Notes under the pieces: model-generated | Seen by the model: the letters and a program-made list of their open reading frames with translations, nothing else | Database searches by the model: none | Told to the model about the DNA's origin: nothing | In this document: one piece after another, positions 26,040 through 37,663 of the stretch | How positions within the stretch are numbered: position 1 is the first letter of the stretch | Layout: every line of letters begins with the position of its first letter | Assembly: GCA_003290465.1 (NCBI GenBank) | Contig: CP030759.1 | Coordinates: 1,205,144-1,269,143 of the forward strand | DNA: 64,000 nucleotides | From: Candidatus Sumerlaea chitinivorans | GTDB taxonomy: Bacteria; Sumerlaeota; Sumerlaeia; Sumerlaeales; Sumerlaeaceae | Reading direction: 5' to 3' | Translations under genes and position numbers: made by a program

Positions 26040-28412
26040 CTATTCTGCAGAGTTTTCCCCCTTGGAGTTCGCAGCGGCAAGGGCTTGGCGAAACTGGATC
26101 TCGTAGAACCGGGCATATCGCCCACCCAATTTCACAAGTTCGTCGTGGGTACCACGTTCTACGATTTTCCCCTGATCAAGCACGAGAATGCTGTCCGCAT
26201 GCAGAATCGTGGAGAGTCGGTGGGCGATGACAAAGACCGTCCGGCCCTTGATGATGCGGCTAAGGGCTTCTTGGATGAGAGCTTCAGTCTCGGAGTCGAG
26301 CTGGCTGGTGGCCTCGTCCAGGATAAGGATTGGGGCGTTCTTCACAAATGCACGGGCAATGGCCAAACGTTGGCGTTCTCCGCCCGAGAGACGGACGCCG
26401 CGCCCACCGACCACTGTGTCGTAGCCGTGGGGCAATCGCATGATAAAATTGTGGGCATTTGCTGCTTTTGCGGCTTCGATGATTCGCTCCCGAGGAATAT
26501 CATCCGGCATACCGTACGCAATGTTACGGGCGATGGTGTCATTGAAGAGAATCACATCCTGAGTTATGATGGCAATCTGGTCGCGCAGAGAACGCAGCCG
26601 AACACTGCGGATATCCACACCATCAAATAGGATCCGTCCCTCGGTGGGGTCGTAAAAGCGCGGCAGTAGATTTACAAGGGTGGTTTTACCCGCCCCCGTT
26701 TCGCCAACAATCGCGGTGACATGGCCGGCGGGGACGGTGAAGTGGACATCCTTCAGCACATGGTGGGACTCCGCAGAATACCGAAACCACACGTGCTCGA
26801 AGGAAATCTCGCGTTGGACAGGTCGCAGTTCGGGAGCACTCGGGTCATCCACAATCTTCGCTTTTGTGTCTAAGACGCGGAATACCCGATCACTCCCAGC
26901 CATGCCACGTTGAATTTTTGCAATGACCCGGCTGCTGCCCTTTAGGGGGCGGAAAACTTGTGTGAGGAACAAAATAAAGAGGACGAAGTCTGAGCCGCTA
27001 AGCTCGCGAGTCTGAAGCACATAGTAGCCACCCGCCAGAATCATGGCAGAGACTGTCACGATGCCCAAGAGAGCGACCAAACCAGTTCCGAGCTCTTCGG
27101 CGATGACTGTTTTTAGAGTGCGACCGAAAACATTCCAGCTTTCACGCTCGTAGCGGTTTGCCTCCTTCGTCTCCATATTGTAAGCCTTCACGACCCGGAT
27201 TCCGCTGAATGTCTCTTCGGCTATTGAGGCAATTTGGGCACGGATCTCTTGGACACGCTTTGAGATTTTACGCACCTTGCGCCCAATTCCATAGAGCAGC
27301 AATCCCAGAATCGGGGCGACGCCAAAACTGAGCAGCGTGAGTGGCGGAGAAATAAAGAGCATTGCGATGATGAGCGTGACAACCGTGAGAGGCGTTTTGA
27401 GAACATTTGAGAAAAGCACTTCAATGGCGCCGCTGATCGCCATGACATCTTGCATGATTGTGGATAGAAGCGTACCGACAGCCCGGCGATTGTAGTACTC
27501 CATGTCCAGCGTCAGCATATGCCTGTAGACATGGTTGCGGAGCCGTAACAAACAGAGGTTTCCCAGATAGGCGCTCAAGTACCCCGCAAAAAAGGCGGCA
27601 GTCACCATGCAGAGCGCAGAGACGACCATGGCCCCCAGAATCAGACCCAGCAAACGGAACTTATTCTCGGAGCTGGTCATGACGTAGTCCTGAAGTCGCT
27701 CAAGATACGGAAGTGTGCGTTTCGTGAACTCGGCTTTGAGGGACGAAATCCATCCCGTGTGGTGCTTTTTCGTGAGCACGGGCACGGGCACATCCTTCAG
27801 CTTAGTGGTGAGGAGTGCAACAGCCGGTGGAGCCCCCTCAGGATAGATTTCGAACCACTCGTGAGGATCGAGCCCATGTAGATTGGTTTCCCCTTGCGGT
27901 AGGATAATGGTGAGCTTGACGCCACGTTGTGCAGAAACCATGCGGCCAAAATAACATTGGGCCCAGCCACTTTCATCAATTCGGTGAACTTGTGATAAAT
28001 CAAGAATGACCCACTTGTGCGGGGGCTTGAGTAACGCTGCTAAAGCGCCGTGGAGTTCCTCCGCCGCACGTGATCCCGCAAGTTCCCCTGCGGCGCGCAA
28101 GGCATACGTTTCCTCCCCAACGGGTTGAGGCGGAGCAAGCTCGAATGATGCTTTTTCAGCGGCCTTGGTGACATCGGTCAGACGGTTCTTGATAAGAAGC
28201 TCAAGTGCGGGACGAGTAAGCGAAAGTGTCGTCACTGTGAACAGGGCCTCAAAGAGCATCGCTAGTACAAGGCCAGCGACGACCCACTTGGTGCCATGCA
28301 AATACGTCACGAGACGCCGGTAAAGGCCTAAATCCGTGTAGCGACGTTTACTCACTCGGCCGACTTCCCACCGACAGCGCTTTCGAGCTTCTGCAAATAA
28401 ATCGCGAGACAA
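26040..28412 (-). CDS. ABC exporter (fused TMD-NBD, MsbA-like) with STAS-like domain inserted after TM1
   Basis: 790 aa; NBD motifs GETGAGKTTL (Walker A), LSGGERQRLAIARAF (signature), ILILDEATSQLD (Walker B), AHRLSTI. Between TM1 (WVVAGLVLAMLFEALFTVTTLSL) and the next TM helix lies ~170 aa including YALRAAGELAGSRAAEELHGALAALLKPPHKWVILDLSQVHRIDESGWAQCYFGRMVSAQRGVKLTIILP, matching the anti-sigma-antagonist (STAS) pattern. Start overlaps the upstream ORF by about 60 bp. Confidence 0.8.
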   Translation of the reverse strand: MSRDLFAEARKRCRWEVGRVSKRRYTDLGLYRRLVTYLHGTKWVVAGLVLAMLFEALFTVTTLSLTRPALELLIKNRLTDVTKAAEKASFELAPPQPVGEETYALRAAGELAGSRAAEELHGALAALLKPPHKWVILDLSQVHRIDESGWAQCYFGRMVSAQRGVKLTIILPQGETNLHGLDPHEWFEIYPEGAPPAVALLTTKLKDVPVPVLTKKHHTGWISSLKAEFTKRTLPYLERLQDYVMTSSENKFRLLGLILGAMVVSALCMVTAAFFAGYLSAYLGNLCLLRLRNHVYRHMLTLDMEYYNRRAVGTLLSTIMQDVMAISGAIEVLFSNVLKTPLTVVTLIIAMLFISPPLTLLSFGVAPILGLLLYGIGRKVRKISKRVQEIRAQIASIAEETFSGIRVVKAYNMETKEANRYERESWNVFGRTLKTVIAEELGTGLVALLGIVTVSAMILAGGYYVLQTRELSGSDFVLFILFLTQVFRPLKGSSRVIAKIQRGMAGSDRVFRVLDTKAKIVDDPSAPELRPVQREISFEHVWFRYSAESHHVLKDVHFTVPAGHVTAIVGETGAGKTTLVNLLPRFYDPTEGRILFDGVDIRSVRLRSLRDQIAIITQDVILFNDTIARNIAYGMPDDIPRERIIEAAKAANAHNFIMRLPHGYDTVVGGRGVRLSGGERQRLAIARAFVKNAPILILDEATSQLDSETEALIQEALSRIIKGRTVFVIAHRLSTILHADSILVLDQGKIVERGTHDELVKLGGRYARFYEIQFRQALAAANSKGENSAE

Positions 28413-29053
28413 GCGATTAGATAAACAATCGTGAAGCCCCCGCTAAACATTTCACGCGCCCAAACACCCCATGGGATCTTGAAAATTGTTTGCGGGCGGT
28501 GCGGATGGACGACACGCAACATCTCCGTGTCCACCATTTCCTCCAAGTCGCTGATGAACTGGAATCCTCGTTTCTCGAGTTGTGGCCGTAGCGTGATATT
28601 GTGAAATGAAGCAAAATCAAACACCATACGGATCGAAATCCGACGTGGCAAGAGCATATCATCCAAAAAATCTTCGCGGACCCAACTCTCCAGCCGGGTC
28701 TTAGGATCCAAAGGCATCGGTGCGTTCGCAACCTCGGAAAGATCGTAGACAAGATGCGGACCGCTTGAAGCAAAAAGCTTGCGAGCTTCGTGCTCCAAAA
28801 CCTCCATCACCGAGGCCGCCATCTCGTCCGGCAGGTTCCACGGAATAAAAGCCAAGACCACTTGGGGATCGACCTGCGCCAAGAGTAATTGCGATTGCTC
28901 AAACGCCTCGAAAGCAAAATCATAGTAGAGAGGGCGCAAGGCCGCCCACCGTTCAATGCCCTCCGTGACCTCGGCAAGCTCCAGATTCTTCTGCGCCACC
29001 AAGTCAGCGCAGCGGTTCAAATCGTAAAGTAATATCGGGTTCGAGTTTTCCAT
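28352..29053 (-). CDS. Hypothetical protein, first gene of the envelope operon
   Basis: ORF 28352..29092; likely start MENSNPILLYD. No recognisable motif. Co-directional with and overlapping the ABC exporter gene. Confidence 0.45.
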   Translation of the reverse strand: MENSNPILLYDLNRCADLVAQKNLELAEVTEGIERWAALRPLYYDFAFEAFEQSQLLLAQVDPQVVLAFIPWNLPDEMAASVMEVLEHEARKLFASSGPHLVYDLSEVANAPMPLDPKTRLESWVREDFLDDMLLPRRISIRMVFDFASFHNITLRPQLEKRGFQFISDLEEMVDTEMLRVVHPHRPQTIFKIPWGVWAREMFSGGFTIVYLIACLAIYLQKLESAVGGKSAE

Positions 29054-29389
29054 CCTGAGCCTTGGTCTTAGCCACTCCGGTTCACAAATCAATGCGAATG
29101 CACTAACGCGCGAATAACAAAAGCATTCGCAATGGGGCAGATTGAACCGCGCGATGACAATGAAAACAGGTGTTTTGCAATTCAGCTACCTGAACTGGAG
29201 ATCAGTTTCGGCAATGCATAGAAAGGCCGATGGATTGGATCGTTACAAACGTACATTCGTTTATCTTGATCGTCGAATCACAGGAACAATGAAGTCGTAA
29301 GTAATGTCAGAATAACCGAGAAGCGCTGGCCGCGCGCTCTCAAGTGAGGGGTGTGATCGCAGTCGAAGTCCACTGTGGAGGTGTGTACG

Positions 29390-29779
29390 ATGACTGCTAC
29401 AAACATTTCCCACAAAGTCCTTGTTCTCCTGCCTGAAAGAGACAAGCCCGCATTCGCTGTTTCCACTGGAACTCCACACCCGATTGAATGGGTCGAGGCC
29501 ACGTCACTCGAGGAGGCCGCGCGTATGCTGCGCGAGCTCGAGTTCGATTTTACGGTGATTGATGCGGACAACCCCTCGATTGATTACCGGAAGTGCATTC
29601 ATTTCGTAAAATCCACTCAACCCAAAGCCCGGGTGGTTGTGGCTGCAGAGATTGGGGATGACGAAATGTGGCTGGATGCGCTCGATGCGGGGGCTTGCGA
29701 TCTCGTGGAGAAACCCATTGATGGGACGTATCTTGAGCGTCTGTGCCACCGCGCAGCAAGCCGCGCCGCCGCCGCGTAG
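29390..29779 (+). CDS. Stand-alone receiver (REC)-like domain protein, degenerate
   Basis: ORF 29375..29779; ATG at 29390 preceded by GGAGG. Fold pattern of a CheY-like receiver (KVLVLL...FDFTVIDADNP...ARVVVAAEIGDD...DAGACDLVEKP) with candidate phospho-Asp and conserved Lys, but lacking the N-terminal acidic DD pair and the conserved Thr/Ser. Confidence 0.5.
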   Translation: MTATNISHKVLVLLPERDKPAFAVSTGTPHPIEWVEATSLEEAARMLRELEFDFTVIDADNPSIDYRKCIHFVKSTQPKARVVVAAEIGDDEMWLDALDAGACDLVEKPIDGTYLERLCHRAASRAAAA

Positions 29780-29898
29780 AATTGTTTGCCATAATTTTCT
29801 AAAATTTGTGAAGTGCACCTTGACAACCACCTTCTTGTTTTCGCGAAGTTCTCTTTGTTAGAATGGGAAAATAGCGAATTTTGGTCATAGGAGAGCGC

Positions 29899-30936
29899 AT
29901 GTTACTACCATCGCACTCGAAGAGGAACAAGAAGCGGGTTATTCTTTTTTTAGATACAGGTGATAATTGCCGATGTCCACTCGCAAAAGGCTACCTCACA
30001 AAACTTCTCGAAGAGCGTGGTATACGCCACATTGAGGTTAAAACGGCTGGTGTCATGACGCCAACGGGGCTCCTCCCCCAACCAGAAGTCGTCCAGTTAC
30101 TTAAAGAGGAAGGGGTCGACATCTCGCACCATCGCTCTCACCCCGTCACCGTCCAAATGATCGAAGATGCCGATCTCATCCTTGGGATGTCGTCTTTTCA
30201 CGTCCAGACGGCGATTCGCCGGTCGCCGGCCGCTCGGGGCAAAGCATTTCTTCTCAAAGAATATGTGGGTTATAGCGGCAAGGCCATCCAAATTGGCGAC
30301 CCAATGGGGGGGACGATGGAAATCTTCAAGAAATGCTTCGAGCAAATCAAGGATGCCCTCGAAAAGCTCGTCGAAATGGATATTATCCGCAAGCCGCCCG
30401 AAGACTGGACCGAACCCCCAGCACGAGCTCCGCGCGAAGGTGAACCCTTAGAGGCAGAGGCTGTAGGGGCAGGCGGAGATGGGCACGTAGGTTCGACCAC
30501 AACCGCAAAAAAAGAAACGGCTGCTGCAGGAGCGATCGAAGCTGGTACAAAACCCCGGCGCCGAGGGCGCCCACCCAAAAGCGCGCAGAAATCCGTAGAG
30601 GTGGCCCAATCCGCAGAACTCAAACGCAAGCGGGGACGTCCGCCGAAAAGCGCCAAAGCCGGTGAAGCTCAGGCGCCAGCAAAAGCTCCAAAAATAGGAA
30701 AGGCTACCGCCGCCGAGACAGGGCGCCGGAGAGCGAGTGCCCCCAAAGCCAAGAAAGCGGCAGCAGGACGGAGCAGACGCGTAGCGGTCAAAGGTTCTGC
30801 GAAAGCGGAATCAGCCCCAAAAGTGAGAGAAAAAAGCACTTCTAAGAAGCAGAAGACCGGGGAGAAAACCTCAACCAGAACTCCTCAACGTACAAAGAAA
30901 GCATCTGCAAAAACAGCTACAAAAAAATCCAAGTAA
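29899..30936 (+). CDS. LMW-PTP-fold protein with Cys-to-Asp P-loop substitution and C-terminal AT-hook tail
   Basis: ORF 29881..30936 (TTG); ATG at 29899 preceded by AGGAG. N-terminus VILFLDTGDNCRCPLAKG aligns residue-for-residue with the LMW-PTP P-loop (I-x-F-V-C-T-G-N-x-C-R-S-P), with Asp at the nucleophile position; DPMGG general-acid loop retained. C-terminal ~180 aa Lys/Ala/Pro-rich with two AT-hook cores (KPRRRGRPPKS, KRKRGRPPKS). Confidence 0.65.
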   Translation: MLLPSHSKRNKKRVILFLDTGDNCRCPLAKGYLTKLLEERGIRHIEVKTAGVMTPTGLLPQPEVVQLLKEEGVDISHHRSHPVTVQMIEDADLILGMSSFHVQTAIRRSPAARGKAFLLKEYVGYSGKAIQIGDPMGGTMEIFKKCFEQIKDALEKLVEMDIIRKPPEDWTEPPARAPREGEPLEAEAVGAGGDGHVGSTTTAKKETAAAGAIEAGTKPRRRGRPPKSAQKSVEVAQSAELKRKRGRPPKSAKAGEAQAPAKAPKIGKATAAETGRRRASAPKAKKAAAGRSRRVAVKGSAKAESAPKVREKSTSKKQKTGEKTSTRTPQRTKKASAKTATKKSK

Positions 30937-30948
30937 GGAGCACTGTGC

Positions 30949-32934
30949 ATGAACAGTAGCTATCGTTCAATGTCAGTTAACGTGATTCTTTTACTACTCG
31001 CGGGAGTGCTAATTGGAAACGTATCAGTTGGCGCTCCCGAGAAAACGCGCAAGTCTCGTGTCACGCTAAAAGATGAGCAGCCAGAATTATCAACGACCCA
31101 TGTCAATGGGCCTTCTGTCGCATCTGGCAAGAATGACAAGATAAGCGCGCAGTCAGATGGTCCGACTTCAAGGGTTGCCACCTCCAAGGATGGAAAGACG
31201 GACAAAGTCACAACCTCCATTGATGTCGGGACGCCTGGGAATTTCCTGCTTGCTCGCGTCAAGGACAAGTACCTGCGGGATCCCGATGTCATGAACTATA
31301 AGCAACTGATGGACATCACCGAAGGTGGGGTGTGGACGGATGTCCGTGATCGTGAAACACTTGAGGACATGGTCCTTCAGGAAGTACTCTTTGATATCGT
31401 CCCCACTCTTCGTAAGGAGGAACATGGGAGCCTCCATGGTACGTATCCTTCCACCATGGAAGAGCGCATGTACCTTCGGGTCAGGATGCGCGAAGAGATA
31501 GAAAAAGAAACCACCCCGACTCGCGAGCAGCTCGAAGAATGGACTGCACGCAACATTTCCCGCTTCACCCGACCTGAGCGCGTGCACGCTTATCACCTCT
31601 TCATGCAGGTCTCGAAGGATAATCCGACCAGCAGCCTTGAAGCAGTGCGGCAGCGGATGGAAAAGGTAAAACAAGAGGCGGACGCCGGGACATCTTTTGC
31701 GCAGCTTGCTCGCAAGTACTCGGAAGCTGCCAGCGCCAAGGTGGGAGGCGAGATTGGATGGGTGACCCGCCGAATGCCAATCGGCGCGGAAAATAAGCCG
31801 ATGAACATTGTCCTCGAGAACGCCCTGTTTGCTCTTAAAACCGGTCAGGTCTCGGACATTCTTCAGACCTCCCATGGGCTCCACCTTATGTATGTTGCGG
31901 ACCGGCTCACGACCTACGTTCCTACAGTGGATGACCTCATTACAAGCCGTATCTTGCCGAGAAGTGCACAGGTGGAACTTGTTGCGCAGAAATGGCGGGA
32001 TTTGACGTCCGCAACCCGTCAGCGCTATCACGCGAAGATCCTCTTCGATCTAAATAAAGGCACCAAGCTGACGACCGACGTTCCTGCGGTGGAGTTCAAC
32101 GGCCAGAAGTGGACGGTGGGGGAACTTGAGCAATTGTATGGTCAGCGCTTCGTTTCCGCCTACCGCCTGCGTCAAGACACGACAGAGACTTTGGTAGGGC
32201 TCCTGAATGAAGTCCTGGACGAAATGGCGCAGGTACAGCTCGCACTCGACAGGAAGCTGGACAAAGATACCACCGTCGCCCGCAATTTGAAACTTCTTCA
32301 TGATCGAGTACTTTTCAAGAAAGCCTTCCAGCAGTACGTTGCGCAAACTTCACCGATTACTGAGAAGAAAATCAGAGATAAGTACGAGGCGGAAAAGGAC
32401 CGGAATCGGCTACCAGAGGCCACGGGTTACATCATTTCGATCAAAGTGCAACCAACGACGGTAGGCTTGGACCGCGAAGAAGCGCGAAAAATCGCGCGCG
32501 AGAAAGCTGAAGAGATCCGCAAACAGATCCTCGCGGGAGCTGATATCGAAAAGCTTGCTCGGGAGCACTCCCAAGACGATCGCGCCTCCTCGGGCGGACT
32601 GGTCCCGCGAAGCCGTCTTGCATCGCTGCATGACCTCTCGGGCCGACGTTTTGCCGCAGTGGCAAGTACACTCAAACCCGGTGAGGTGAGCGATGTGCGT
32701 GACTTTGGCGACGTCTTCGTAGTGGTGAAGCTTGTCGAACGCTGGCCCGGTGAGCCTCCTGCTATTGAAGAGGTGCGCGAGCGCTTGAAGGCAGCTCTCA
32801 CGAATGAGGCAAACCGTACTGCACGTGACCGGCTGATTAACGCGGCTGCACAAAAAGGCCTGTTGCGGTGGGCGAATCCGGCTGCAAGTTATGGAATCAC
32901 GCCCAAACCCAATCTGGCAGATGACCCGCAATGA
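30949..32934 (+). CDS. Periplasmic chaperone / peptidyl-prolyl isomerase, SurA/PpiD/PrsA-like (parvulin domains)
   Basis: 661 aa; signal peptide MSVNVILLLLAGVLIGNVSVGA; parvulin-like segments (FAQLARKYSEAASAKVGGEIGWVTR; LAREHSQDDRASSGGLVPRSRL...); ATG preceded by AAGGAG; 13 bp after the upstream gene. Confidence 0.7.
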   Translation: MNSSYRSMSVNVILLLLAGVLIGNVSVGAPEKTRKSRVTLKDEQPELSTTHVNGPSVASGKNDKISAQSDGPTSRVATSKDGKTDKVTTSIDVGTPGNFLLARVKDKYLRDPDVMNYKQLMDITEGGVWTDVRDRETLEDMVLQEVLFDIVPTLRKEEHGSLHGTYPSTMEERMYLRVRMREEIEKETTPTREQLEEWTARNISRFTRPERVHAYHLFMQVSKDNPTSSLEAVRQRMEKVKQEADAGTSFAQLARKYSEAASAKVGGEIGWVTRRMPIGAENKPMNIVLENALFALKTGQVSDILQTSHGLHLMYVADRLTTYVPTVDDLITSRILPRSAQVELVAQKWRDLTSATRQRYHAKILFDLNKGTKLTTDVPAVEFNGQKWTVGELEQLYGQRFVSAYRLRQDTTETLVGLLNEVLDEMAQVQLALDRKLDKDTTVARNLKLLHDRVLFKKAFQQYVAQTSPITEKKIRDKYEAEKDRNRLPEATGYIISIKVQPTTVGLDREEARKIAREKAEEIRKQILAGADIEKLAREHSQDDRASSGGLVPRSRLASLHDLSGRRFAAVASTLKPGEVSDVRDFGDVFVVVKLVERWPGEPPAIEEVRERLKAALTNEANRTARDRLINAAAQKGLLRWANPAASYGITPKPNLADDPQ

Positions 32935-32964
32935 GCTTACATCGTAAGCGATTGGATTGATTGG

Positions 32965-33005
32965 GCTGGCAGATGCCACTCCAAGGCATCTGCCAGCTTT
33001 TTTTT
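32965..33005 (+). terminator. Rho-independent terminator of the REC-like / PTP-like / SurA-like operon
   Basis: gctggcagatgcc-actccaa-ggcatctgccagc (13-bp perfect stem) followed by tttttttt. Confidence 0.85.
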
Positions 33006-33094: not shown

Positions 33095-33340
33095 TCATTC
33101 GGCTGGGGGTTCGGCGACCATTATTTGCCACTCGACTTCGCTGAACAATGCCGCAACGTCAGCCTCGATGTCTTCGGGGTCAGCCCACGGCTTGATGGCG
33201 AACTCAATCCATGCTCGGTCGTGCTCATCACACATGAAGTGAATTCCCGCCAACTCGCGGTGTTGGTGGAGAAACTGTTGGATGAGATCGCGATGACGGG
33301 CCCGCCACTCGAGCAGCTCACTCAGTGTCATGACCGACAC
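33095..33340 (-). CDS. Hypothetical small acidic protein
   Basis: 81 aa ORF (MSVMTLSELLEWRARHRDLIQQFLHQHRELAGIHFMCDEHDRAWIEF...); protein-like composition; no motif recognised. Confidence 0.4.
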   Translation of the reverse strand: MSVMTLSELLEWRARHRDLIQQFLHQHRELAGIHFMCDEHDRAWIEFAIKPWADPEDIEADVAALFSEVEWQIMVAEPPAE

Positions 33341-36478: not shown

Positions 36479-37663
36479 ATGCAGACGTTGAGATTTGCTC
36501 TCGTGGCAGCCGTGCTGACGGCCATGGTCATGAGCCCCTCGCTTGAAGAGCCGCGCGTTGCCACTGTGGAAACCCCTCGTGAGGCCCCCATGGCAGTGCT
36601 CCGTGTCCAACCCATGGTTCCGACAATTGCCGCCCCGAGTCGGGCACCCATTTCGGCTTATGCATCAGCCCACAAACCTTTGGAAGGAATTCGCATTTGC
36701 ATCGATCCCGGCCATGGCGGACAAGAAAAATGGGACAAGATCCTCTACACCGGCGGAACACGCGGCGTGGTTACGGGCCAAACCGAAAGCGATGTGAATT
36801 TGCGCGTTGCGCTCTTGCTGCGGCAATACCTGGAAGCTGCCGGGGCCGACGTCATTATGACTCGAACTTCGGATGAGCGTTGTACGAACTGCGGCGATAA
36901 ACGAGACGAACTGGATTTCCGCCCCAATTTGGCGAACTCGACAAACTCCGATATTTTCGTGAGCATTCACCACAACGAGGCAAATGACCCCTCAGTAAAT
37001 TATACGATGACGTTCTTCCCCGCCGGCATGCCCAGTGCAGCCTCGTTGGCTGATAACGTGGCTTCTGCGGTGTCACGTTACCTGGGTACTCCATGCGCCG
37101 GGGCAAGACCGGGAACCTATCGGATTTTACAGAAGGCAAAGATGCCGGCGGTCTTAGTTGAGGCATCGTTTATGAGTAATCCGAGTGAGGACCTTCGGCT
37201 TCAGTCGCTTGCCTACAACAAGCTGGAGGCCAAGGCGATCGCCACGGGTATCCTCAACTATGTTCGAGCCACAAAAGGGCGTCCTGTCGATTTCTCCACA
37301 ATCTTTGCGCCAATTGACGAACAAGCTCCTGCGGCGCAAGCAATTGCGGATGCGACCATCGTGCGAAAGACAATTCGCGAGAAAAAGTCCCTCTTCGGAC
37401 GCAAATATGAAGAGGTAGCGCTCGACGCCACGGGGCGTGTCATCAGCCGACGAGACATTGGTGGTGGCAGCCTGAGTAAAAAACGTCCAGCCGCCCAAAA
37501 GGTTGTCGCTTCGGCAACTGGAAAGCGTCAAATTTCAAGCAGCGTCACAAAGGCCTCGAAATCTGCATCGGTAGCGCACTCCAAGGCGCCTGCCAAGAAA
37601 GCCTCCAGCGGGAAAGCAAGTTCTGCAAAACCGACGAAGACCAAAAAAATGGTTGTCAAATAG
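36479..37663 (+). CDS. N-acetylmuramoyl-L-alanine amidase (Amidase_3 family) with basic C-terminal tail
   Basis: 394 aa; signal peptide; catalytic pattern [10 protein letters not shown]...[10 protein letters not shown]...[10 protein letters not shown]...[10 protein letters not shown]...[13 protein letters not shown]; C-terminal ~60 aa Lys/Ser/Ala-rich. Confidence 0.85.

Follow-up and report, generated by a model that had tools for sequence, protein, structure and literature searches.

What does a phosphatase domain do once its catalytic cysteine has been replaced, and what would it do on a polycationic tail? The question is raised by one gene in a 64,000-nucleotide (nt) stretch of the Candidatus Sumerlaea chitinivorans genome (assembly GCA_003290465.1, contig CP030759.1, positions 1,205,144 to 1,269,143; hereafter the window, in whose own numbering all coordinates are given). 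The gene lies at 29899-30936 on the forward (+) strand, stop codon included, and encodes a 345-residue protein that joins a Cys-less, YwlE-type domain of the low-molecular-weight class of protein tyrosine phosphatases (LMW-PTP) to a basic, disordered tail. An earlier note on this DNA had left a choice between a pseudo-phosphatase and an enzyme with altered chemistry. The answer developed here is that the gene is the Sumerlaeota ortholog of a YwlE-type phosphatase in a derived state, that its active site has been remodelled rather than decayed, and that its product may act as a reader or trap of phosphorylated ligands tethered to nucleic acid.

By sequence, predicted fold and apparent descent, the protein belongs to the LMW-PTP superfamily. 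Its fold domain comprises residues 11-165 (29929-30393, +). Residues 15-157 align with positions 1-143 of the 144-position Pfam profile LMWPc (PF01451; E 3.8e-25), and the score of 89.2 bits against a cut-off of 23.2 places the protein in the superfamily at the level of sequence. Among PDB sequences, phmmer puts YwlE-type arginine phosphatases and 4egs at the top (E 1e-19 to 1e-23). An AlphaFold model made with 40 homologs as input has a predicted local distance difference test score (pLDDT) of ~98 over residues 11-170. Foldseek makes the same assignment at the level of fold, retrieving 50 LMW-PTP or ArsC chains at target TM-scores of 0.82-0.94, with 4egs and the YwlE structures 4kk4, 4etn and 4kk3 in the top ranks (0.91-0.94; root-mean-square deviation (rmsd) 1.4-1.6 Å). 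The full-length Pfam match, the model confidence and the likeness to YwlE thus bear out the LMW-PTP fold proposed in the earlier note.

The active site is another matter. The P-loop aligns without gaps in phmmer, the query from residue 15 (ILFLDTGDNCRCPLA) against YwlE from residue 3 (IIFVCTGNTCRSPMA), which equates Asp19 with YwlE Cys7, Arg25 with Arg13 and Asp134 with the general acid of the DPFGG loop. Gapless YwlE alignments, clade columns and the codon table all place the loop D19-T-G-D-N-C-R-C26 at 29953-29976 (+). Set against C-T-G-N-T-C-R-S of YwlE, it has Asp19 (codon GAT) for the nucleophilic Cys, Asn23 for the position-5 Thr and Cys26 for the position-8 Ser. Arg25 is kept and is 100% conserved, and the general-acid loop D134-P-M-G-G (30298-30312, +) is intact, with Asp134-Pro135 invariant in 40/40 aligned homologs, so that the P-loop Arg and Asp-Pro loop of an LMW-PTP are both in place. 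However, direct reading finds no C-x5-R motif anywhere in the 345 residues, whose only cysteines are at 24, 26 and 146, and the C-x5-R-(S/T) nucleophile signature that defines the superfamily is therefore absent. Position 23 corresponds to YwlE Thr11, which is reported to confer phospho-arginine preference (PMC7772506); Asn occupies it in 91% of the Asp clade's genome-derived sequences and Thr in 96% of the other Sumerlaeota homologs. Because the protein lacks both the C-x5-R nucleophile and the position-5 Thr, its annotation as a tyrosine or arginine phosphatase, used in several database entries, is unwarranted.

Profile alignment and structure prediction both agree with the earlier note that an Asp sits where the nucleophile belongs, with no Cys placed there, and that the Arg and the DPMGG loop remain. 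The note's residue number, Asp25, holds only for a start at the in-frame TTG at 29881, which would give a protein of 351 amino acids, six residues longer; counted from 29899, where the note itself began the gene, the residue is Asp19. The ATG at 29899 is supported as the start because an AGGAGA ribosome-binding site lies at 29889-29894 (+), 4 nt before it on direct reading. Gene calls on 13 public contigs give the exact 345-residue protein with this ATG as its start.

Other identities for the site were tried and rejected. A shifted register with another Cys as nucleophile is ruled out by the lack of C-x5-R and by the gapless YwlE alignments. Cys26 is unlikely to be a migrated nucleophile, as Gly, Ala or Ser stands there in several Asp-form orthologs. 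Thioredoxin-coupled arsenate reductases of the pI258 type are defined by a Cys10/Cys82/Cys89 redox triad. Here the first Cys of that triad is Asp, the relay positions hold no Cys, and the corresponding model (TIGR02691) scores 40.8 bits against a cut-off of 174.3. Phosphatases of the haloacid dehalogenase (HAD) type use a DxDx(T/V) motif I within a Rossmannoid fold that bears a squiggle and a flap. The D-T-G-D spacing, with two residues between the Asp pair, misfits that motif, the fold is that of an LMW-PTP, and a family scan of the protein gave no HAD match.

Where this site came from can be read from its relatives. The survey took in 80 genome loci, one genome per species, together with 146 cluster representatives, from which P-loop, tail and neighbours were read. 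Among the matches listed, the close homologs all come from metagenome-assembled genomes (MAGs) of the uncultured phylum Sumerlaeota (BRC1). The 26 loci from outside the phylum uniformly have a C-T-G-N-x-C-R-S loop (CTGNTCRS or CTGNSCRS in 24/26) and no tail, and their usual gene order is ywlE-rpiB-glyA. Within Sumerlaeota, nearly all proteins carry a K/A/P/R-rich tail of 13-330 residues, and most keep the Cys (CTGNTCRS or CTGDTCRG) in the ancestral context, often lptFG-ywlE-rpiB-glyA. Since the tail is found in nearly all of these proteins, most of them Cys forms, it spans the phylum and predates the disappearance of the Cys. The closest known systems include the YwlE/PtpB-type arginine phosphatases (B. 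subtilis 4kk3, Geobacillus 4pic, 4egs; target TM-score 0.84-0.94, rmsd 1.4-1.8 Å), which have a P-loop of the same length, the Arg, the DPxGG acid loop and the same succession of secondary-structure elements; sister Sumerlaeota proteins add the identical CTGNTCRS loop and the classical ywlE-rpiB-glyA order. The window's protein differs from YwlE in the three loop residues given above, in its 180-residue basic tail, and in having a peptidyl-prolyl isomerase (PPIase) gene rather than rpiB-glyA as its neighbour.

The Asp form occurs in 11 species genomes besides the window, and its main clade numbers 35 sequences, metagenome proteins included. The Asp is conserved across all 35, and 33 of them are distinct from the window's own sequence, which settles the ortholog conservation that the earlier note had wished to see surveyed. 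Loops within the clade read DTGDNCRC, DTGGNCRC, DTGDTCRA, DTGDNCRG/A or DTGDICRS. In a neighbor-joining tree with the eight P-loop columns masked, the main clade appears in 350/500 bootstraps, and the sister proteins have the Cys and lie in an lptFG-ywlE-rpiB-glyA setting. Three loop columns carry residues that mark the clade and are seldom seen in the rest of the phylum (Asp for Cys at 19, Asn for Thr at 23 and Cys for Ser at 26), as does a fourth at position 55, where Pro replaces Ile in the loop that follows strand 2. Residues T20, G21, C24, R25, P27, H78-R-S and D134-P-M-G are meanwhile 100% conserved within the clade. Because positions 19, 23 and 26 changed in a clade-specific manner while the rest of the site stayed fully conserved, the active site is remodelled, not decayed. 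Identity to the window in seven of the loci (L009-L014 and L017) is 57-65% for the domain, 32-41% for the PPIase and 45-54% for the neighbouring ABC protein.

A second Asp group, with the loop DTGDICRC, consists of P0172, P0174, P0175 and P0178 (443-492 amino acids). It is monophyletic in 499/500 bootstraps and joins the main clade in 81/500, and P0172 still occupies the ancestral ywlE-rpiB-glyA position; its Cys-to-Asp change happened in place and was probably separate from that of the main clade. Proteins with Ser (STGNICRS, STGDTCRS, STGNTCRS and STADTCRS; TCN and AGC codons) and an Ala form (ATGDTCRS) turn up at scattered points of the tree. Independent losses have replaced the Cys by Asp, on probably two occasions, by Ser and by Ala. 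They are confined to tail-bearing Sumerlaeota proteins, and every distant representative with a P-loop found has the Cys.

Three further features of these relatives may be recorded. The alignment column at residue 138 of the window's protein, beside the general-acid loop, holds Cys (DPMG-C-T) in 55% of non-Asp Sumerlaeota homologs and Gly in 73% of Asp forms; this Cys could be a second redox-sensitive one, made unnecessary by loss of the nucleophile. P0166, from another organism, is 1,679 amino acids long. By eye, its first ~850 residues resemble a region of the phosphoenolpyruvate-utilising or pyruvate-phosphate-dikinase type, and five tandem LMWPc-like domains come after it with the divergent loops CAGNACRS, CSFNTSRS, GAGYTDRS, CTHNTSRS and CAANHSRS, one of them without the Cys. 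On a DTGDICRC contig (L089, 7903-9215), the glyA gene for serine hydroxymethyltransferase (SHMT) that follows rpiB is called as three fragments, reflecting either assembly-error frameshifts or a disrupted gene.

The second half of the protein, residues 166-345, is predicted to be disordered (pLDDT ~50) and carries a net charge of +30 (K 16%, R 10%, A 20%, P 9%), much as the earlier note had described a Lys/Ala/Pro-rich, disordered tail of about 180 residues. Its charge is unevenly laid out. An acidic to neutral disordered linker (residues 166-215, net -6, pLDDT ~50-60; 30394-30543, +) precedes a polycationic, K/R/A/P/S/T-rich disordered tail that resembles HMGA and histone H1 (residues 216-345, net +36; 30544-30933, +). 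Two AT-hook cores can be read within the latter: KPRRRGRPPK (30550-30579, +; RGRP at residues 222-225) and LKRKRGRPPK (30619-30648, +; RGRP at residues 245-248). They have the octamer RGRPPKSA in common, and the peptide is likely to be under selection because 6/8 of its codons differ synonymously between the two cores. By our own estimate, the chance expectation of an RGRP from the composition of the tail is ~0.014. Pfam AT_hook (PF02178) picks out both cores, with a score of 14.3 bits (E 0.036) that lies under its 17.4 cut-off. The two cores that the earlier note had pointed out are present, but they are not a feature of the family: of ~40 proteins with the Asp, 7 have RGRP or RGRK, and the Cys forms checked have neither. 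The tails of homologs do not align and are conserved in composition only.

K/A/P-rich tails are not a general habit of this proteome as sampled in the window, where no other open reading frame (ORF) of at least 120 amino acids has a K/A/P-rich polycationic segment. A 394-residue ORF at 36479-37663 (+), with a signal-like N-terminus, has a short basic Ser/Ala/Lys-rich end that falls under the threshold for such tails.

The nearest parallel to the tail is that of Myxococcus xanthus CarD, which is likewise a disordered extension of ~140-180 residues on a folded domain, acidic at first and then K/A/P-rich with RGRP. This HMGA-like layout binds DNA in CarD, and CarD orthologs alternate between AT-hook tails and hook-less, H1-like K/A/P tails (PMC4374960; PMC9304148). 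Asp-form orthologs similarly have tails with or without hooks. CarD differs in having 3-4 hooks and an RNA-polymerase-interacting domain and in being restricted to myxobacteria, whereas the Sumerlaeota proteins have 0-4 hooks on a phosphatase fold. The two tails share composition and layout without sequence homology.

What, then, might this combination do? We favour, with our confidence evenly poised, the reading that the protein reads or traps phospho-ligands while tethered to nucleic acid, the nucleoid being the likeliest site. The Asp19 carboxylate would replace the thiolate's negative charge and thereby preserve the conformation of the P-loop, which would still hold a phosphorylated or phosphate-mimicking acidic ligand via Arg25 and backbone amides. 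Turnover at neutral pH would be lost or very slow, the site could no longer be oxidised, and the domain would have given up erasing for reading or trapping. The tail would anchor the domain on nucleic acid, most likely AT-rich nucleoid DNA, and the protein would recruit or shield its phospho-ligand at the chromosome.

Of the two options in the earlier note, the comparisons appear to favour a pseudo-phosphatase over altered chemistry, because the Cys was lost recurrently to Asp, Ser and Ala and because of how engineered Cys-to-Asp mutants behave (PMC8728433). In PRL phosphatases this substitution does away with catalysis but leaves high-affinity binding at the active site, and the proteins gain 8-10 °C in thermal stability; the retained binding has been ascribed to the preserved negative charge (PMC8728433). 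Moreover, the repeated loss of the Cys only in a tail-bearing family suggests a function independent of catalysis after the tail was gained. The mutants PRL-3 C104D, PRL-1 C104D, PRL-2 C101D and PTP1B C215D have the same substitution at the same P-loop position. However, they are laboratory-made, eukaryotic and from other PTP classes (dual-specificity-like PRLs and classical PTP1B), whereas the Sumerlaeota protein is a natural, conserved state of the bacterial LMW-PTP class, with two further and apparently compensating loop changes. In work attributed to Romsicki et al. in 2003, PTP1B C215D reportedly had an unchanged Km and a kcat ~70-fold lower at pH 4.5 and ~7000-fold lower at pH 6; it is said to have been insensitive to oxidation and to have been proposed as a substrate trap. 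The D2 domains of RPTP gamma and zeta appear to carry Asp at the Cys position.

The evidence from sequence is compatible with membership of the pseudophosphatase class: the site lacks its nucleophile but is otherwise conserved, and such losses recur in the family. STYX, the D2 domains of receptor PTPs and the D1 domain of PTPRU similarly combine a PTP-superfamily fold with a change in the catalytic site that abolishes turnover, or is presumed to, and a selected non-catalytic role (PMC7320164; PMC7772506), a role that here is predicted. Those eukaryotic pseudophosphatases belong to other PTP classes and carry other substitutions.

Several observations weigh against a tethered reader. The strict retention of Asp134 and the three co-optimised P-loop positions would also fit an active enzyme, and neither the invariance of Asp134 nor the coupling of Ser26-to-Cys with Cys-to-Asp is explained by it. 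For Cys26, one possibility is a thiol-to-carboxylate hydrogen bond that replaces the bond from the Ser hydroxyl to the thiolate; another is a metal site formed by Asp19, Cys24 and Cys26. The AT_hook match is sub-threshold. Sequence-specific binding of AT-rich DNA cannot be the conserved function of the tail, given that hooks are absent from most orthologs, and RNA, ribosomes or polyphosphate would be equally plausible partners for a polycation. Nor does the tethered-reader hypothesis account for the close and conserved pairing with an exported PPIase. Because Asp134, Cys26 and the PPIase pairing are not accounted for, chemistry based on the Asp stays live as a rival.

In its simplest form, which we consider possible though unlikely, that rival holds that the protein is still an enzyme: Asp19 would act as a nucleophile, forming an acyl-phosphate, or as an activator of water, in a slow or acid-optimum, oxidation-insensitive phosphatase. 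A variant would have a divalent metal held by Asp19/Asp22/Asp134 or by Asp19/Cys24/Cys26. Asp134 and Arg25 are invariant and three P-loop positions co-vary with the Cys-to-Asp change without drift, all of which speaks for catalysis, as does the fixation of Asp specifically in two probably independent groups. PTP1B C215D is also counted on this side, as it reportedly retains a measurable activity that depends on the Asp and peaks at acidic pH. Habitats with fluctuating oxygen are reported for Sumerlaeota (PMC8092238), and an oxidation-proof site could be advantageous there. Nonetheless, engineered Cys-to-Asp PRLs are catalytically dead (PMC8728433), and the same Cys became Ser or Ala in sister lineages, which argues that turnover was dispensable. 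Position 26 is Gly, Ala or Ser in some Asp forms, so that an Asp/Cys/Cys metal site cannot be universal, and the P-loop lacks the HAD-type DxDx(T/V) motif. We are distinctly doubtful of a further step, in which the chemistry has switched outright and Asp19 forms an acyl-phosphate, perhaps aided by Asp22, Asp134 or Cys24/Cys26 together with a metal, making the protein either an oxidation-proof phosphatase or a receiver-like phospho-acceptor that steers engagement of the tail with the chromosome. If that were true, the probable double origin of the Asp would reflect positive selection for acyl-phosphate chemistry.

The reader hypothesis could also fail at its other end. On a reading that we consider rather unlikely, the tail is a general polycation for RNA, ribosomes, polyphosphate or condensates rather than a DNA module, and the two RGRP cores are incidental. 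The scarcity of RGRP/RGRK cores in the family, the sub-threshold AT_hook scores and the unalignable tails, alike in composition only, would all fit such a role, and ppk/ppx genes are reported in Sumerlaeota (PMC8092238). Yet the synonymous divergence of the shared RGRPPKSA indicates selection on the peptide, the acidic-then-hook layout is like that of the DNA-binding CarD, and hook-less H1-like tails of CarD orthologs bind DNA as well.

It is improbable, in our view, that the Asp form is a neofunctionalised extra paralog in genomes that still have a canonical YwlE with the Cys, in which case the lineage would not have given up the phosphatase activity. The main Asp clade does stand in a new context, as a duplicate might: a homolog of the two-parvulin PPIase follows every one of its genes with flanking DNA, rpiB and glyA are near none of those whose flanking DNA was examined, and the clade appears to have relocated from the rpiB-glyA context to the side of the PPIase. 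The genomes are, moreover, incomplete MAGs, and the genome scan covered the first 600 stretches. Among the matches listed, however, the genomes of Asp-form species show no second LMWPc locus, and no Asp form turns up in the ~45 genomes with Cys, Ser or Ala forms; coexistence of an Asp form and a Cys form in one genome is therefore unlikely within that set. P0172 of the second Asp group, holding the ancestral ywlE-rpiB-glyA position, argues the same way. A search with SHMT for the rpiB-glyA locus of an Asp-form genome returned matches of mixed phyla, as SHMT is too conserved.

That the Asp is a sequencing or assembly error, or the gene a decaying pseudogene, is hardly credible: only the prior expectation that a CX5R enzyme without its Cys is broken speaks for it, whereas a different sequencing run and dataset (L091) matches the window over 7,038 nt with no differences, L092 differs at 46 positions with 0 inside the domain, the Asp codon is GAC in 6 and GAT in 5 of 11 species-level genomes (window included), TGY to GAY requires two substitutions, the reading frame is unbroken, and in most Asp-form loci no gene of the neighbourhood is more conserved than the domain. 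The sequencing error that the earlier note had named as a way to overturn its claim thus finds no footing.

The gene's partner lies immediately downstream. The PPIase gene (30949-32934, +) starts 12 nt past the LMWPc stop codon with a GGAG ribosome-binding site and encodes a 661-residue exported or membrane-anchored chaperone with a hydrophobic N-terminal anchor or signal and two parvulin domains (Pfam Rotamase, Rotamase_3 and Rotamase_2). The earlier note's label 'SurA-like' is only approximate, as NCBIfam models of the SurA, PrsA and PpiD type all score far under their cut-offs. The gap between the two genes is 2-12 nt in 5/5 loci with listed coordinates, and in the other seven Asp-form loci a PPIase match comes at most a few hundred nt later. 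A hairpin like a strong intrinsic terminator, with a 15-bp stem and a T-run (32963-32999, +), ends this two-gene unit. Beyond it, between the terminator and tRNA-Ser/proC, the window's organism and a related genome have an ORF of 78-81 amino acids without family annotation (window 33095-33340, L005 8826-9062 and L091 6197-6433, all on the reverse strand), whose recurrence suggests a real, conserved small gene.

Upstream, at a distance of 119 nt, a 129-residue receiver-like (REC) protein is encoded at 29390-29779 (+; Pfam Response_reg, 31.9 bits, cut-off 30.2). It aligns with CheY only from strand 2 onward and keeps the acceptor Asp and the Lys, with Ala at the Thr/Ser position; its acidic pocket at the N-terminus, judged by eye, is L-P-E-R-D, so that an atypical receiver or a pseudo-receiver is possible. 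By tblastn (E 1e-8), the REC gene was detected in 3/12 Asp-form loci (the window, L005 and L013), which makes it a lineage-specific neighbour. A conserved REC-LMWPc-PPIase signalling operon is thereby ruled out, and the three-gene operon of the earlier note shrinks to a conserved unit of the tailed LMWPc gene and the PPIase. In the AT-rich spacer between REC and LMWPc genes, TGTTAGAAT at 29856-29864 (+) forms an extended -10-like element (TGnTAnAAT) 35 nt 5′ of ATG 29899, with a weak -35 (TTGTTT at 18 nt). A consensus promoter scan did not report the element, which could be the LMWPc-PPIase pair's own promoter.

Further upstream lies a divergent pair (26040-29092, reverse strand), identified by Pfam and synteny, of a 246-residue protein without a family (28352-29092) and an ABC exporter (26040-28412). 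The pair adjoins Asp-form genes in L005, L008, L009, L011-L014 and L017, and in most members of the main clade. The exporter is MsbA-like (ABC_membrane and ABC_tran), and a weak STAS match, under its cut-off, covers residues 104-175 before the membrane domain (E 6e-4).

To our knowledge, hardly any pseudoenzymes of the phosphatase class have been described from bacteria, and no description of a bacterial LMW-PTP pseudophosphatase was found in the literature searched, a limited search that is no proof of novelty. The finding is neither a new principle nor the answer to a long-standing question, and its practical value is modest, although the domain could find use as a module that binds phospho-ligands, is insensitive to oxidation and may be thermostable. 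Its interest lies in a natural experiment: a single orthologous family within one phylum first acquired a chromatin-type tail and afterwards appears to have lost its nucleophile several times, leaving Cys-form sisters as controls and a natural series from Cys to Asp, Ser or Ala. The series bears on whether evolution also uses the Cys-to-Asp exchange that was engineered in PRLs and PTP1B to split binding from catalysis. If the protein is indeed a DNA-tethered reader of phospho-arginine or phospho-tyrosine, it would represent a new type of bacterial nucleoid-associated signalling protein.

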